From Chrysomallon squamiferum (taxonomy: Eukaryota; Animalia; Mollusca): DNA of 64,000 nt. The stretch covers positions 4,030,001-4,094,000 of the forward strand of contig CM022679.1 of assembly GCA_012295275.1 (NCBI GenBank). The letters are read 5' to 3'. Under the pieces are notes generated by a model. The model saw nothing but the letters and a program-made list of their open reading frames with translations, ran no database searches and was not told where the DNA came from. The translations under genes and the position numbers were made by a program. Below are positions 25,844 to 56,797 of this stretch, piece after piece (position 1 is the stretch's first letter; the number at the start of each line of letters is the position of its first letter).

Positions 25844-28834
25844 TCAAGGCACAGGCACAAGGTTTTCTTTAGCCCACTTCTTCATGGTGCGGATGATGTA
25901 CTCAACCTGGGGGTTGCTGGTGTTTCTCAACATGTTGATTACCTCTCTCAGGTACTCCCTGAAACAAACAAAAAAAAAACTTATTACAACTCATGTTGTT
26001 CCTTGTCATTATCAATATTCTTATTTTTGTTATATTTATTTAATTTCATACCATTAAATTTTGTGTATTTAACAAAGTAATTAAGCAGTGAATTCCAATT
26101 TTATTGAAAAAATATTTAAGGCAAAAATTAATTCTTTTAATTACATGCTATATACTGTTTTGGATTTTTTTTTTTTTTAGGTAACAAAATTTGGAAATAT
26201 ATTTTATTATTACATTATTTTAGTAATAGACTGATTTTGCTATTACTGTTTTAATGAAACACTATTCTTATTACTATTATAATTAATATTACTAAAATTC
26301 TGGTAACATATCTGGAACTGAAAGAGTTTTCTAATTTGACTGCTGGTATAAAAAATTGAAACTTGATTTACTTCAGACTGCTAGGAACATATAAAGATAT
26401 GTTATTTAGTTCAGACCTTTGTTCCTGGCCGGCAATAATAAGCTGGAAAACACCCACACACGCCCCACGTTTCCCCTCCCAGTATTCAGGGTTGGGGTCC
26501 AGACGCTCCAGAACATCAAAGGCTTTGGCAGCATAATAAAACTGTCCCATCTAAATATACAAAAATATTTTATATACAACATAATAAAACTGTCCCATCT
26601 AAATATACAAAAATAATTTTATATACAGCATAATAAAACTGTCCCATCTAAATAGATACAAAAATATTTTATATACAACATAATAAAACTGTCCCATCTA
26701 AATATATATAAAAATAAATATAAAAACAACTTTATACACAGCATAATAAAACTGTTCCATCTAAAATATATACAAAAATAATCTGATATACAGCATAACA
26801 GAATTATCCCATCTAAAATATATAAAAATAATTTTAAATACAACATAATAGAAATTTCCTACTAAAATATATTTAAAAATAATTTTATAAATACCATATT
26901 AAACATCATAACAGAACTGTCCCAAAGGAAATAGATTTTAAAGTAATTTAACAGAATATTGATGAAACAAGACTTAAATAAAATGTATTAAAACCATAAT
27001 TGAAAGAGAGAATTAATGAATTATTTGAATGTATTAATATATTTTTGATATAAATTCAATTAAAAAAAAAAAAAAAAAAAAAAAATGCAAAGAGATAATA
27101 AGTAATAAATAAAAAGTAAAACCAGAGCCAGGTATAGATTTTTTTAAACCTAGTGTTTAGTATTTTCTACCTTGTAGCAGTCATTAGCTATGAGCTGTAA
27201 CAGACTGAATGACTCAGCTGAAGTTTCCATCTTCAAGTACAGTTCCCAGGCCAGACGTGATTTTCTGTTCATGATGTCTGAAAATATTTATAAACATAAA
27301 ACTTTGTAAAAACTTTAAAACTATGTTGACTCTGACACTACCAAATTATTATTTCTATAGGCATAAATGTGCACACACATATACACACACAGAAAAAAAA
27401 AAAAAAAAAAAAATAATAATAAAAAAAAAAAAAAAAAAAAAAAGACAAATAAATAAAACACATATTAATTACAAATCTAAAAAAAAAAAAAAAAAACCTC
27501 AAACATTTAATGATATTAAAACACTCACAACTTTTAATGTATTAATTTATATTAACATATATACAGACAACACATCAACAGAACTGAAAACAGTTTCCTA
27601 AATTATGACAAATATAATATAACCAATATTCCATATAGGAATATACAATAAAACCCAAAGATAGGAATACATACTGACAGATACGTACACATATGCACAC
27701 ACACATAATAATAGTAAATCAATATAAAAAATCCTAAACCTAGCTGAAAATCTATTTCATAATTACAGTTTTTTTTAAAAATAACTATTGTTAGGAAATT
27801 ATTGTAAAGCTAATCATTTATCATATTCCTACTAAAATTTTTTGATTTTTATAAAAAAAAGATAAGAAATTAATCCAAGCTGTCAATAAATTTATATCTA
27901 TGAGTCATGTGAATATTTTATGCCACTCAGCAGGAATGTTATTAAAGGAACTGTATTAGGTTGCATGTTTTTGTTACAGTGTAATTTTAAACTGGTTAAT
28001 TATTAGCAGTGTGAACTGTTAGTGTACTTACAACATCGAGCCAGCCAGCTGAGAAAAGTGTAGTCTGACTTAATCTTGTCACTCTGAACCAGCAGGGCAA
28101 CCTGGGAAAACATTTCAAACATTTTTATCTAACATCAGTCTTACTCTTTGTCTGTCTGTGTATCTTTCTGTCACTTCCATTCAGTGATTCATTCTAACCA
28201 TTTCTGTTACTACTTCTTTATTCCTTTCTCTTCATTTTTCATTTTCTTACTTATTTTTTCAAATTATCAATTTGTGATCTGTTATTCTCAGTATACTAGA
28301 TGGAACAAACTTTATTATGGATTGTGTAGTACTGAATATCAATTTATTAAAATAGCACAAATATGCTCAGTCTTATATGACTTAGTACCATTGCCTATGT
28401 TATCATGATTTGTGTATTTCACATCTAAATGGAAAACTTTAAACAGCAAAAGAAATATATGTGTTATAGGCAAAAATAAATGTCTTACATGGTTCATTTT
28501 TTAATTTAATTTAACGTTGTCCAGATAATGATAATAAATACACAACATATTTATCAGTCCTATAATCTCTTTTATCCTCTCATCTACAACTTCATTAACA
28601 AACAGCTTTATTCATTCATCCTTCTACCCATTAACAGTTTATAAAAAACAAACACATACCTCCTCAGCTTCTTTGAAGTTACCCACAGCTGCTTTGGCTT
28701 GCATGTAGTTGAAATTAAACAGATCATCATTGTAGAAGTAACTCTGAAATTCATTAAACTCAAATTACTCTTTTTTTATTTTACAAGATTTACAAATAAT
28801 TGTTGAAGTCAATACACAAAAAACACAAAAAGGA

Positions 28835-49132: not shown

Positions 49133-51438
49133 TTAGTTTGTTTTAACCGCGGCTCCGTCTTCTCCTTTTGGTGTTAGATCGGCCAAGAAGATAACGCCTA
49201 ATCCTACTATATTGACCAGGAGATAGAAAATAAAGATAAGTCTGTCGGTGACACAGGCAATGATTCTCCATTCACGCACGTATTTTTCCTTCTCTTCCAC
49301 CTTGGCCTTCTTCTCCTTCACTTTCTCCAACATGTCTCGAATGGCCCGCACTTCGTCGAGAATCTGCCCGGAACCCCCGCCCGCCCCGTTTCTGAACTGA
49401 GTGTTAAAATCCTCGCCAATCTGCTGGGCCGGAACGCCAGGCTCGGCGAATTCCTGGTTTGCGCATTTGGCGTCGGTTCCGTTGTCAAGCAGCCTCACTT
49501 GCGCAAACCGGATGTCGGTGTACGGGTACTGTCCCTTGGTCTCGCCGATCACCCGCCCAGAGCTCCAGGTCTTTTTCGGCGTAGGCGGGGAACATTCGGG
49601 TTCGACGATCTTCGATCTGATGCAAAGTGCTCTTGCTGCCCCGTCGATGATAATCTGGTGGTAAAAAAAACAACAAGGAATAAAACTGATTCTGTTTTAC
49701 TAATTAGATACAGTTTGAAGCCTGAAAATAATAACTTCCGCGATAATTTATTAATGTTTATTATATGTATAACTACAGTATATTGTATCTTTTGTTATCT
49801 AGGTTTCACCTTCTGTTCTCATTGGCATAGTATCATATCAAATCCCAGCATATTATGTGGTATCATTTATCACAACAATTCAAGTAATTCTTTCTTTTTC
49901 TTTCTTTTTGGTCTTTCTCATTTACATCATAATTGTATTTTCAAAATGATGAAAATAATATGATGCACAACACACATATCAAATTATGTCGTATCATGAT
50001 ATGTTAGATAATATAATGTCATATCATATCAGGTATTACATCAAATATCATATTTCATACCTGGAATGACATCATATTATTACATCATATATCGTATGTG
50101 AATCGCAAGTGAAAGTGAAAGTGAAAGTACTGTAGGCAGATTTACCCTTCTCAACCACTTTGGTGCTCTGTTGATCATCACTCCTCGGAAAAACATGTTG
50201 GCGACCATGCAGGACAGAACCGTCGACATCGTAATCATGACCATGTTCAGACAGAAGTAAGCACCTGCAAAATACACAGGTTCCTCTTGTGATAAAACAT
50301 AAGTAAAGAAACAAACACTAATTGTACAGTCAAAGCGGATCCAGGATATTCAGTAGGAGGAGGTCAGGCAGTCTATGTAATCTGTGTTCACTTGCATAAA
50401 AATGACATGAATTTTACTGAATTTAATGATGGATTTTATTTTTTAAACAATTTAAAATGATCATAAAAATATGTATAAAAAAATTGCTTTTAGTGATAAA
50501 AATAGTAAATTTTAGCGTGGTTTTTTTTTATGCAGACACCTCAACCCCCTCTCTAAATCCCCGCCCAGTTCAACAGGGGTGATGCTGCAGTGTCCTACTA
50601 CATCTTCTGAAGAGTTTACAGGACACAGTTTCAGCTTTTACTTCTCTTCCTACAACAAAATGTGTGTGCAGAGTTTATTAAAAACGAATTAAATTTAAAC
50701 ATAAACCAAACATAATGGACTTTAGAGAAAACATGCTTAACTAGACAGGTGGTCGGTGTAAGCAAGTGGCCTAGATTCTTACTGAAGGTGGTATGTGTGA
50801 ATAGGTGAGACAGAAAAATAAATACACAGAAACACGTCTATATGTACTGTCAGAATAAGAACAGTCATCTCTGTATAACAATTGAAATTTAATTATTTAA
50901 TCATTCTCATACGGTTATCTTACTTACCAAATGTAATTAATAACCCGAAACTTTGTGTTCTTTTGTAAATCGAGGCTGGTATGTATATCAAGCAAGTACA
51001 CAAAATACTACATGTCTAATCTTATATCCATTTCATTATTATTATTTTTTTTTTAAATGAAATTTAGACGGATTTGAAAAATTAGAACACACTAAGTACC
51101 TGAAGCAAAAAAATTGGTATTTCAAAAATATAATTTTCATTTGATTTAAATGGTAATTAATTAATTTATTTTTATTTATTATATTTATAACAACATTGAG
51201 GTCGAAAAGCATATAAGTGATCAGTTATTAGAAAACTGTTGTAGCATTGAGTGTAAATACAAGTCGATACAACGACGACGATGACAACGACAATACTGAA
51301 GGTGTTGAATACACACATACACATAAATAAAATTAAATAAATGAAAGAATCACAAGTAGTTAGAAGATTCACTTCTTTTTATTGGGGAACGAATAATAGA
51401 TACAATGATGCATTAATTATTTTTAATAGAAGAAATGA

Positions 51439-51573: not shown

Positions 51574-53582
51574 AAGAAGAAGAAGAAGAAAAGGTTGTAT
51601 TATTATTATTATTATAGTAATAGTAATAATAGCAGTATTTTTGTGGTGGTGGTAATAATCGTTGTAATCCATTGTCATCATCATCTTTATAATAATAATT
51701 AAACAATGTAATAATAAAAAAATAATAAAGTAAAATAATTAATTCTTGGCTCGCCACTGGATAAACTGCTATTAGATGAGTAATGAACCTATTAAAATTG
51801 TTGTTTTCTACACTAAAATAACGACATTTTTTCAAATTAGATTAAGATGACAAAAACAGGGTCTTCTAATATTTTATATTTTCAAGTGTCTGTGAAAAAC
51901 TTTGTTAAGCTGTGATATTCTGTACCCATTAATCATGGTCTATTTAAGTAAGAATAAAAATTAATTTATTAAGACAAATTTTAACTTGTTTTCGTCTAAA
52001 ACTATCCGTCGATTAAGCAACTAAAACAAACCCAAAATAACAACAGCAGTAACAACGTACAGACATATATAGATATAAGCTTACTCTCAAAACCCACTGA
52101 CGAAAAACAGACACAAACACACACACAGACAGACAACACCGTAAACATAATTTATAATATCAGACGTAATGACATCAAGAATAACAACAATAATATCAAA
52201 CGAGAAATAAAAAACAAACTTCAACATAAAGAATGAAATGAAAGTAAACAAATATATCTCCTGTTGTTATTATTATTATTATTTTTTTAATGAAAATTTA
52301 CAATATTTTGTTTAATGTCGGCAAATACAAAGTGTTATGTATTATTAAACTGCATAATCATTTTATGTAATATTTTCCAAAGATATAATTTCAATAATTT
52401 AATTTATATTTTTTATTTACGTTTGTTTTGCGCAGCATATTTGAAAAAAAAGAAAAAAAAAGAGCATAAAACAGCGTAACTGACAGAAGAAAATACAAAA
52501 AGCTTACAAACACTGATGCTAAACAAAAAACAGATAGAAAAGACAAATAAAACACAAAGACAAACAGACACACAGACACAAAGAAAACAAACGTTACGTA
52601 TCTGCACCCCATTTGTAATGTAGACTTGGTCTTATTTTTTATATAAATATTAAATGCAGTTTTGAAAAATCGCTTAAAAATCATCTTAATACTAAATATA
52701 TGATAAACGTTAATTTAATCATTTGTTGTAATACTAGCTCGATTTAAAATTTACTATACTTATTATTTCGTTTCTTTTCTAGACATTTTTTTTTTACCAC
52801 TTATTCGATTTTACATTTTTAAATACGACTTTCTAGACCAGATTCATGGGTACATGATATTACAGCCTTCTTCTGACATGATATTACAGTTTCTAACGAT
52901 ATCATCCGTTACCTTTTGACATTTGAATAATCATGTCACCCCTTTTGGTTTTACTTACTCATAAAACCAGTGCTTATTACAAAAGGGGTGCCAAAACACT
53001 GATAATTTCATCCACTAACCAATTAGCGGTATCGAGTAGGCCGACTTTGGGGTGGACTCCGCCAGCAGAAGTAAAAGCAGAAAGAATGCCAGGAAAATGT
53101 TCATACCTGGTAACAAGAAGAGAAATGTTATGGTAAAGTGTAAACAAGTTGTTGAGATAGTAGTATCTGAACTCACCAATCAGAGGGATCGAGTCTGCAG
53201 CTTTAGGAGTGGATTCCGCCAATAAGAGCAGCAACACAAAGAAGGCCAAGAATATGTTCATACCTATCACAAAAAGTGAGATAAATACATGTATATATTA
53301 CTTGTATATATGTCACAGTAGGTTCATACCTGTTACAAAAGTTAAGTAAATACATGTATATTACTTATTTGTGCACAACACAGTGTGTTCATGCCTAGTG
53401 AGAATTAGATGTAGGCCTATGTTATTGGAATATATATAAAAAAAAAAAAAAAAATCAAGTTCATACCTGTTCAAAGTAAAAATGTTTGTATTATATATCC
53501 GAGTCCTGTGAAACGGGAAAATATATTGTTTTATAGTCTGATAATTGTAATACAGATAAATAAAATTAGTAATGACTGTCTC

Positions 53583-53741: not shown

Positions 53742-56700
53742 CTATATCTCTATCTACCTATCTATCTCTATCAATCTATCTATCTGTTTGTTTGTCTGTC
53801 TGTCTGTCTCCCTTTCTCACATGTTTATGCCACATTCAGTTTGCCTTCAGATCTCTCTCTCTCTCTCTCCTGAGATATTATATCTATTTATCGCCACATA
53901 ATTTTTTTTATAGTTATCTGTATGTATCTCACAAGCATTATGTCACATATAATTAAATGCTATTTCTATTAGCGAATTTCCCGATACACTTTTTGTAACA
54001 TGGGTTTCAAATGTCTTAAAATGTAATGTCCTAAACAAAAAAATAACTTTTCGCTTTCACATTCAGATATTTTTTATCTGCAGAATTCTGAATTCTGAAA
54101 CGTCTGTTATTTTTATCCTGCGATTATTTTGCAATTTACTGGTTAGATACAATTGTTAAATTAATTTGTATGATTCCTATTCGGGAAAGTAATCAGCTAT
54201 TTTTTTTTTATATTTGTAATAAACTCTTTTATTTAAATTATTTAGGTTCTAGGTGATGGTTCTGACTTATTAAATTTATTTTATAAAAAAAAAAAAAAAA
54301 TAATAAAAAAAATTAAATAAAAAATATTATTCAGTTTTGGTGTGTAACTCTGAAGACAACAATCAATATAACTGTGGAAGAACTGTTAACGCTGTGAAAT
54401 AAAATAGATCCAATTAATTTAGTTTTCGTATTACGGCGGATTACCAGATAATCATCATAAAAAGATATTGTCTTAAGTTGTCGACTGTTTCTAGCTCAGA
54501 TCGAATATTATTCTAACCTTCAAAGGATAAAACCACTCCATGATGAAATGGAAGTATGAAAATATGTTTTGTTCAGCAACACAAATCAATCAACGATTAC
54601 CCGACTTTATTCAGGTTTTTTTTACAAAATTCAGAGATGTGTGTAGAAGAATCCCACTGTTACTGATATCAGCTGACTATTCTTTGTCGATCAGCGGAAA
54701 GGGATCTTAAGTATTCACCTACTCATAGGTTGGAAAGCACATGCCACAATTCTGGTTTGAACTGGAAATGGCCCAGTAAGCTCACTCTTGCAGTATAAAG
54801 ATTCTAAGAATGACTCAGCAAGATGTACATTTCTGAACCATACATTGATATAAACACGGTTCAAAGAATTATGTAAAATAAAACTCTGCATTGTGTTTAG
54901 TTTAAGTATGGACAAAGATAAATAAAAAAATCACAGGGAATTATTATTTTCTAAAATATCGGCTTTATTCATCTCATGTCTAATGTCACCTTTCATAGCA
55001 TCTTGGGATAATGTCGAATAAAAACGTGTTTTGGTGTTTTGTTATTTTTTTAATATAATAATGTAACAGTCATAATGACCTGGTGAAAATTAAATCGGTC
55101 ATCAACTGAAGTTCAAAAAAGTTTATATCGATTCGTGATCTATGAGCTAGGTTGACTAACACCTAAAAAGTGTAACAGATAGAAAGTCAAAATTAATTGT
55201 TGGTAAAAATCTGTTCTGCAAAGTAACTGCTGAAGGTTAATGCTAGTGGTTCATCCTCTGAAGATTAAAATAATATTCAACCACTAATAATAATATGTTT
55301 TACACAAAGTCAATATCTTGAGGCAGTAACCAGTTTTACCGAATGCATTTTGTTTTGGTATTAAATCACAAACATGTTTGATTTCATGATGGTCATAACA
55401 ACCTAAAGGAAAACGTAAATGCAGTTCGTTTAAAATTCTATCCTCGGTTTAATTCTAAAAATAATCAGACGCCGTCAACTTGTCACCTGCCGAGGTTTCT
55501 CTCGAGATTACCTTCTTTTCAAAACATTAAAACAAACTAAAACATGGAGAGAGAAAAAAGAGTAAATTTTACACATGTCCGGAAGATGTAATGGATTTGG
55601 TGTTAAAGCCAAATGCGTAATTATTTGAATGTTCTGCATGTTAAAGTGCCCAGTCGATACGTCCTGCTTTAAAACTGCAACAAATGTAAGAGTGAGTGTA
55701 AAACAGACTCATCAAATTGACCATGGGATGACAAGCAGAGTGAGTGTTTTTCTCGCTGTTACCAAGTTGTTGTTTTCTCGCATGTATTTAGTTTTAGTGT
55801 AATGAAGTGAAAGCTTTCATTTGCCGCTGGTGTCAGTTGTACATTAGTTCTGTCGTTGCTGATACATCGTGCGCCATCAACCAAGAAGAATGTTAGGATT
55901 TAGATTTAACGAAAACAAGATGGCTTATTTTCTAAACAGTGATCGTTATCATCAACGCATTTTATTATATTTATTCAACTACAATGCATTCATTTGAGAA
56001 AAAAAATTCTTAATTCAGTACTCTAAAGGCTTTTATTAAAATTATTATTTTGGATTTTTTTTCCTGTTCGGTGCTTGACGCATTTTCAACGTCTACAACT
56101 TGTTCCAGTCGTAAAAATATTCAAGTGTCTTTTTATATGTATACAGTTTAATGAACAAAAATATATATATTTTACAGTCTTCATCGCAAAAGAATTATTT
56201 TATTATATTTAGGAAGGCTGCGCCAATGATATAGTGACAGATCTGCGCAAAGCTAAAGGGAGCACACTGTACATGATAAAAAGAGATATTCTCTAGCAGA
56301 ATCGTTAAAACCCGATACTTTTAGTTTATTCACGTCACATACCTAATATTAACTTTGCTGGCGATTCTGGGGGCACCCAGAAGATGACCAAAGTCAGAAG
56401 AGACAGCAGTGCGCATGGCATGATCAGGATGAACGTGTAGAACGCCACCTTCCGTTTGATTCTCAGTTTGAACGTGATGTCTGGGTAGGGCTCCGGGCAG
56501 CAGGAGTACCTCTCTTCGTGCCTCACTCCAGTGTTCTCGATGATGTCCCATTCATTGCTTTTTATGTATTCGTTCAGGTTCATGGCTTGGTTGTCCGGCA
56601 AGAAGTGGATGTCCAGCTTGAATCCGTCGTATGTCCACGAGCCGAATTTCAGTGTACACATCTGTTCGTCGAATGGAAAATAAAGAGTGTCGAACGAACA

Positions 56701-56797
56701 AGAGCTTCGCAAGATTGCCTGAGGCATCCATAGACACTGCCCGTTGGACTGAACAACAACAAGAGCATCTCTCTGTTCACGTAATCTGTCGTCGGCA
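49133..56797 (-). CDS. Nicotinic acetylcholine receptor alpha-type subunit (Cys-loop ligand-gated channel), predicted anion-selective; 5'-partial
   Basis: Exon 56343-56797 encodes the Cys loop CSFDTLYFPFDEQMC, loop B WTYDG, loop C YSCCPEPY with vicinal cysteines, M1 and PPESPAKLIL. The M2 exon is 53177-53263 or 53020-53106. Exon 50146-50264 encodes M3 (GAYFCLNMVMITMSTVLSCMVANM) and exon 49133-49654 the intracellular loop, 'EWRIIACVTDRLIF' M4 and TAA. All junctions are GT-AG and in phase. No signal-peptide or N-terminal ECD exons were recognised in 56800-64000. Confidence 0.95.
51439..51590. repeat. Compound (AAT)n(GAT)n(AAG)n microsatellite in nAChR intron
   Basis: Directly visible. Confidence 0.93.
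53020..53106 (-). CDS. nAChR M2 exon, variant B (87 nt): (G)MNIFLAFFLLLLLLAESTPKSAYSIPLI(G)
   Basis: Acceptor ttctcttcttgttaccAG at 53107-53108, donor GTTAGT at 53014-53019, the same length and phase as variant A, no stop codons, and differences mostly at synonymous sites. Confidence 0.88.
53177..53263 (-). CDS. nAChR M2 exon, variant A (87 nt): (G)MNIFLAFFVLLLLLAESTPKAADSIPLI(G)
   Basis: Acceptor ...gtgatAG at 53264-53265, donor GTGAGT at 53171-53176, phase 1-1, and it joins the M1 and M3 exons in frame. Confidence 0.92.
53255..53490. repeat. Degenerate tandem repeat (65-72 bp) of the nAChR M2-exon acceptor and exon start
   Basis: Plus-strand GTTCAT(A/G)CCT recurs with the minus-strand AG at 53264/5 (real), 53330/1, 53395/6 and 53467/8. 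The first two units also share 'taaatacatgtat..tattactt'. Confidence 0.75.
53580..53808. repeat. (CTAT)n microsatellite in nAChR intron
   Basis: Directly visible. Confidence 0.93.

Follow-up and report, generated by a model that had tools for sequence, protein, structure and literature searches.

Tandem M2 exons, probably spliced one at a time, in a likely chloride-conducting nicotinic receptor gene of Chrysomallon squamiferum

Introduction

The closest precedent for a choice between pore-lining exons in a nicotinic acetylcholine receptor (nAChR) is the insect α6 subunit, with its mutually exclusive M2 exons 8a, 8b and 8c (excerpts of PMC1919356, PMC2064938 and PMC6393475). A first-pass annotation of a 64,000-nt stretch of the C. 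squamiferum genome (contig CM022679.1; hereafter the window) had invoked this precedent, which those excerpts confirm, in proposing that a chloride-conducting nAChR here carries two swappable M2 exons of independent origin. As far as the excerpts describe α6, the likeness is close: in both systems tandem exons, mutually exclusive in α6 and probably so here, cover the second transmembrane segment of a nicotinic subunit, are old and are conserved, and one α6 copy can be extra-conserved at the DNA level, as it is in the pair of relatives described below. The two systems differ in that α6 is a cation-type subunit of insects with Gly-Glu-Lys before M2, whereas the window gene is an anion-type gastropod subunit with Pro-Ala-Lys. 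Moreover, α6 has three exons, with a conserved Glu in 8c as the change highlighted in the excerpts, while the window has two copies with a recurring Val/Leu contrast at position 13'.

In its nicotinic fold and the Pro-Ala(-Lys) before M2, the window gene resembles the Lymnaea B, F, I and K subunits, Octopus AChRB1-3 and Schistosoma SmACC. According to passages of PMC4055736 and bioRxiv 10.1101/2025.04.02.646353, Pro-Ala-Lys at this site marks the anion-type clade, and chloride selectivity has been measured for AChRB1 and Lymnaea B; a word look-up in the main texts of both returned no mention of splice variants. We likewise found no passage on splicing in the available portions of PMC6896357 and PMC13174522 and nothing relevant in that of PMC11589774. 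Across the literature searched, which omits most subscription journals and the original Lymnaea and Aplysia subunit papers, M2 exon choice is not described for anion-type lophotrochozoan nAChRs. Public annotations do contain such a swap: the RefSeq sets Aplysia XP_005098514-6, Octopus XP_052824820/1 and Lingula XP_013418082-7 exchange the same exon, with Val13' in one version and Leu13' in the other, and those of Aplysia and Octopus include skip forms as well. Their Leu copies carry 9-11 differences by position, compared with three in the window pair, and we found no published analysis of these models. In flies and mammals, ion-channel genes have repeatedly undergone tandem exon duplication (Copley 2004, via an excerpt of PMC3342872); the present case would likewise be one of convergent splicing, with the convergence reaching a single pore residue in several phyla. 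The swap as such is thus known from public annotations, and what is notable here is the repeated Val/Leu switch at the gate ring across phyla. The lone independent origin proposed earlier is not borne out, as pairs occur across Lophotrochozoa.

Results

The gene lies on the minus strand of the window. A constant exon at 56343..56797 (-), ending in phase 1, encodes the second half of the ligand-binding domain with the Cys loop and a loop C bearing YxCC, followed by M1 and the Pro-Ala-Lys linker; it matches Pfam PF02931 (E 8.8e-32), and its product matches the nearest named protein, Gigantopelta aegis P0001, at 90% over 151 aa. Downstream, a 119-nt phase 1-0 exon at 50146..50264 (-) encodes M3 and the start of the intracellular loop (97% to P0001 over 39 aa), and the last coding exon, at 49133..49654 (-), covers the intracellular loop, M4 and the stop (86% to P0001). 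The gene also matches Pfam PF02932. Profile and tblastn searches did not find the N-terminal exons within the window; they lie outside it. The encoded product has the Cys-loop ligand-binding domain, the vicinal cysteines of alpha-type subunits and the four membrane helices M1-M4 of an nAChR, with Pro-Ala-Lys replacing Gly-Glu-Lys before M2.

In two trees built with the M2 exon excluded (63 and 47 rows, partial and most redundant sequences omitted), the gene clusters with Gigantopelta in the gastropod clade that contains Lymnaea nAChR type F and Aplysia XP_005098514-6 (support 99/94 and 98/91). Co-orthologous to this clade and its two sister clades are a single octopus gene and a bivalve clade. 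By this placement, the gene is orthologous to nAChR-F of the gastropod Lymnaea, a subunit of the anion type, and chloride conduction by its product is likely; the anion-type assignment of the first-pass annotation is supported by both the Pro-Ala-Lys motif and the grouping with type F. We also noted that loop C of the window gene has HEER before YxCC (56490-56520, -), where Gigantopelta has NVKR and Aplysia HVKK; these acidic residues might alter ligand or toxin binding.

Between the M1 exon (ending at 56343) and the M3 exon (starting at 50264), each present once and with junctions at the coordinates first proposed, lie two M2 exons: exon A at 53177..53263 (-), with Val13', and exon B at 53020..53106 (-), with Leu13', Ser25' and Tyr27'. 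Each is 87 nt long and phase 1-1 with its own AG acceptor and GT donor, and a 70-nt spacer intron (53107..53176, -) separates them; this reading and the encoded peptides are as the first-pass annotation had them. The exons are therefore adjacent, homologous, equal in length and phase, separately spliceable and specific for the same part of the protein. Their likeness is not due to chance (blastn of A against B, E 3.6e-13), with 23 of 87 nucleotides differing. At the codon level there are 19 differences, and our recount returned the same 16 synonymous changes and three replacements, V13'L, A25'S and D27'Y from A to B (3 of 28 residues); the numbering holds, as the Val of exon A aligns with V13' of human α4 in an alignment made through the Aplysia orthologue. 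As judged by eye, the donor of A (GTGAGT) is stronger than that of B (GTTAGT) and its acceptor is the weaker of the two, with the converse in B. Exon B has an intact frame, intact splice sites and a good pyrimidine tract. Exon A is the nearest match to the sole M2 version annotated in other gastropod F subunits, with one difference from the Gigantopelta peptide compared with three for B. A third M2 copy was absent from the 64-kb window in profile and tblastn searches, and a low-stringency self-comparison of the window gave nothing beyond low-complexity noise.

Upstream of exon A, within 53264..53480 (-), there are three look-alikes of its acceptor and first bases, with AGs near 53468, 53396 and 53331, two of them inside a 65-nt tandem repeat that has degenerated. 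None of the three is followed by a coding copy, and they could be remnants of a local duplication, decoy acceptors or sites of recursive splicing.

Both M2 copies are old and have long been under purifying selection. Nei-Gojobori counts gave a saturated pS of 0.88 between A and B and a pN of 0.064 (Fisher p 3.4e-12), in agreement with what had been claimed from the codon comparison. The saturation at synonymous sites implies that the duplication is old and that neither copy has been drifting for long, and it rules out a recent duplicate or a recent conversion. The pair is also not an artefact of assembly. Both exons lie on one 797-nt contig of DNA run X1, which is free of substitutions from 52900 to 53424 and differs from the window across the pair by a single 1-nt intronic insertion; elsewhere in the gene run X1 shows many substitutions and indels, so that the exons are unchanged in a source with other alleles. 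This source may be another individual or another haplotype.

RNA runs X2-X4 gave no sequence over the two exons, which weighs neither for nor against their use. Among 30 protein clusters examined (in three of them, the 15 members listed of 26, 21 and 75), a one-for-one swap of the M2 segment was seen among the listed members of three, from Aplysia, Octopus and Lingula. The RefSeq isoforms on which this rests are automatic models. Aplysia XP_005098514/5/6 (553, 553 and 524 aa) differ solely in the 29-codon M2 segment, with Leu13' in X1, Val13' in X2 and neither version in X3. Isoforms of Octopus bimaculoides and O. sinensis carry the Val version, the Leu version or neither, and in Lingula the segment is swapped between X2 and X1/X3/X4. 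In a Logan-only cluster that is sister to the Octopus gene, all four members (4/4) have the Leu version. In the mollusc B-type and I/K-type clusters and in the bivalve clusters, the swap was absent from the listed members. Of eight gastropod F clusters, seven had a single M2 version among their listed proteins, and these seven include that of the nearest relative, Gigantopelta. A double-inclusion form was not seen among the listed members of the 30 clusters; the Dimorphilus model P0230 has both copies in frame, which may reflect genuine co-inclusion or an error of gene prediction. The 87-nt M2 exon is also skipped in models of genes without a known second copy (P0168, an Aplysia B-type subunit, P0065 and P0075), and skip forms are therefore not specific support for a regulated pair.

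Tandem pairs were also found in metagenome contigs. In a scan of 44 of 64 parts, which yielded 120 loci, two M2 copies were present in five loci, four of them distinct (L101 duplicates L049). Both the M1 and the M3 exon were present in 19 loci (18 distinct), and in three of the distinct ones, L029, L030 and L049, the pair lies within a single gene; a further pair is in the short locus L096. L029 and L030 are bryozoan-like, and L049 is annelid-like (Owenia, 79%). In the window, L029, L030 and L049 each pair sits between a single M1 exon and a single M3 exon, and separate tandem genes are therefore rejected for these four. The spacers of the pairs in other phyla are 470-880 nt long, and the exon order is Val-Leu in the window and L049/L096 but Leu-Val in L029/L030. 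A bryozoan-like contig related to these last two, L058 (nearest named protein from Watersipora, 67%), is spliced, with its Leu copy joined straight to the M3 and M4 exons and the introns after that copy gone; the junction passes the site of the second copy of L029, a relative from a different genome. Between L049 and L096, the Leu exon has a pS of 0.18 and the Val exon one of 0.67, as expected of a regulated alternative exon.

We noted a 17-nt intronic element 3´ of the Leu exon that is identical in L049 (6528-6544) and L096 (813-829, minus strand), with introns that are otherwise unalignable and a near-complement in L049 about 270 nt further on; it is a candidate splicing element. The second M2 copy of L030 (5090-5188) has diverged strongly and is longer by two codons, with AG/GT and the frame kept.

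To compare the pairs position by position, we used eight: those of the window, Aplysia, Octopus, Lingula, L029, L030, L049 and Dimorphilus (L096 was omitted, as it represents the L049 gene again). A difference at position 13' is present in 8/8, as Val/Leu in seven and Phe/Leu in one; each remaining M2 position across 5'-20' shows one in no more than 2/8. Strong as it is, this pattern does not amount to a formal test: the pairs are not fully independent, and among paralogues, too, 13' varies more than any other M2 position (36 V, 14 L, 5 F and 3 I in 58 distinct peptides). Whole paralogous genes have fixed Phe13' or Leu13' (the P0011/P0022/P0023/P0037 clade, P0066 and the flatworm P0079-P0102), indicating that this position has been varied by gene duplication too.

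Discussion

The window holds an nAChR-F orthologue, probably chloride-conducting, and we consider it likely that its two M2 exons are spliced singly, giving two subunits predicted to differ in gating. Each mRNA of the gene probably takes exon A or exon B, one at a time; the mutual exclusivity proposed earlier draws its support from the isoform models of relatives and the L058 contig rather than from RNA of this species. Exon A probably supplies the predominant form, being the one that corresponds to the lone version annotated for other gastropods. The earlier argument for exclusivity held that including both exons would keep the frame and invert the membrane topology. The frame is indeed kept, and for that reason frameshift surveillance cannot act on double inclusion; inversion would be a reason for selection against such a form and not a splicing mechanism, for which steric blocking is likelier. 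Joining of A to B would probably be prevented by a branch point in the spacer that lies too near the donor of A. Candidate branch adenosines are 36-49 nt from this donor, with one more at 51; the steric limit of 50 nt is a value taken from human exons (PMC5740500, in part), the former fit it, the latter is beyond it, and the case is borderline. The longer spacers of the pairs in other phyla make steric blocking inapplicable there. As to long-range RNA pairing, an uncontrolled comparison gave two complementary stretches of 11 nt in the downstream intron and none upstream, and no pairing that was convincing.

As described in excerpts of PMC11848294 and PMC10899235, L9', V13' and L16' form the closed hydrophobic gate, and the latter excerpt also has the M2-M3 loop coupling binding to gating. 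Together, V13'L and the two replacements in the M2-M3 loop would alter EC50, desensitisation or the stability of the open state, and we infer that the A and B subunits would differ in gating or desensitisation, with no direction predicted. V13'T is part of the cation-to-anion conversion of α7 (passage in PMC6800317). A change of ion selectivity between A and B is unlikely, because Pro-Ala-Lys is encoded by the constant exon upstream, which the two forms have in common, and because Val and Leu are alike hydrophobic.

The pair would have arisen by tandem exon duplication in the F lineage, in the lineage of this snail or earlier in gastropods, and would then have converged on the Val/Leu contrast found in other phyla. 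It is possible, though on balance improbable, that a single ancient lophotrochozoan duplication was instead followed by gene conversion and by loss in most genes, a history compatible with the splicing and gating mechanism set out above. The Leu exons of Octopus and Lingula share a loop one codon shorter and a Val in fourth-last place, as does that of L049, and a clade of the Octopus and Lingula Leu exons was not rejected (p 0.51). With 13' masked, however, all six Leu pair-exons as one clade were rejected (p-AU 3.4e-7), a result in favour of duplication or conversion having recurred; the window copies differ from each other at three residues and from either Aplysia copy at 5-8, and both carry the F-lineage residues Leu9' and Lys24'. 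The differing exon order also speaks against one ancient pair, as does the saturated pS, which excludes recent conversion. These tests used 27 columns, on which window A plus B (p 0.45), window B plus the Aplysia Leu exon (p 0.33) and the mollusc Leu exons (p 0.21) were not rejected either, and the exon-only tree had zero starred branches. Repeated duplication with convergence is the better reading of these sequences; an old pair reshaped by conversion is possible, notably for Octopus, Lingula and the annelids.

The prediction of two differently gating subunits has to be set against other uses of the pair. The exons could be mutually exclusive and their products near-equal, with the pair kept for regulation such as control of skipping or of subunit assembly. 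The small number of replacements, the conservative nature of Val/Leu and the skip isoforms of Aplysia and Octopus are in keeping with this, and the functional difference between insect α6 isoforms is still called elusive (excerpt of PMC6393475). We regard it as unlikely, because the sole change common to the eight pairs falls at a gate position, which near-neutral redundancy does not predict. It is slightly less probable again that exon A alone is used now and that exon B, functional for long, has lately fallen silent: the weaker donor of B, its greater distance from the Gigantopelta peptide and the single version given by most gastropod F clusters among the members listed fit such a loss, and they are opposed by the intact frame and splice sites of B, its good pyrimidine tract, its low pN at saturated pS and the absence of substitutions from it in run X1. 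Least probable of these is that the exons are not strictly exclusive, through frequent double inclusion, which would yield a dead or dominant-negative subunit, or through recursive splicing. The frame-preserving 87 nt and the Dimorphilus model are compatible with double inclusion, which is nonetheless absent among the listed members of the 30 clusters. For recursive splicing, each exon starts with a donor-like GTATGA directly after the AG, once the M1 exon is joined to exon A a donor is re-formed that almost equals the native one, and the three look-alikes lie upstream; the corresponding bases are GG, GC or GA in L029, L030 and L049, and since the donor-like start is not kept there it may merely reflect a Gly-Met codon pair.

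The preferred reading, two singly spliced exons giving subunits with different gating, can be extended to a general proposal, which we advance tentatively and at slightly less than even chances: that lophotrochozoan inhibitory acetylcholine receptors repeatedly evolved pore-exon duplication with a Val/Leu switch at 13', giving two kinetically distinct channels per gene, used according to cell type or stage. If true, molluscs, brachiopods, bryozoans and annelids would have converged on one residue, and the three-residue pair of the window would be the cleanest natural experiment, a minimal test of how the 13' ring controls gating in an anion-type nicotinic pore. The swap would give inhibitory cholinergic signalling a further, hidden source of diversity in the nervous systems of molluscan models: the Aplysia orthologue has it, and in Lymnaea the F subunit ranks with the most highly expressed nAChRs (PMC8414863, in part). 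Expression work on anion-type channels must pick an isoform. The two chloride responses of Aplysia (Kehoe and McIntosh, via an excerpt of PMC4193815) also differ in block by conotoxin ImI, an extracellular property untouched by the swap, so the M2 swap alone is unlikely to explain them.

Outside this gene, exon-like reading frames of another gene are present on the minus strand of the window at 26371-26550 and 25847-25990, one of which resembles IFT56/TTC26.
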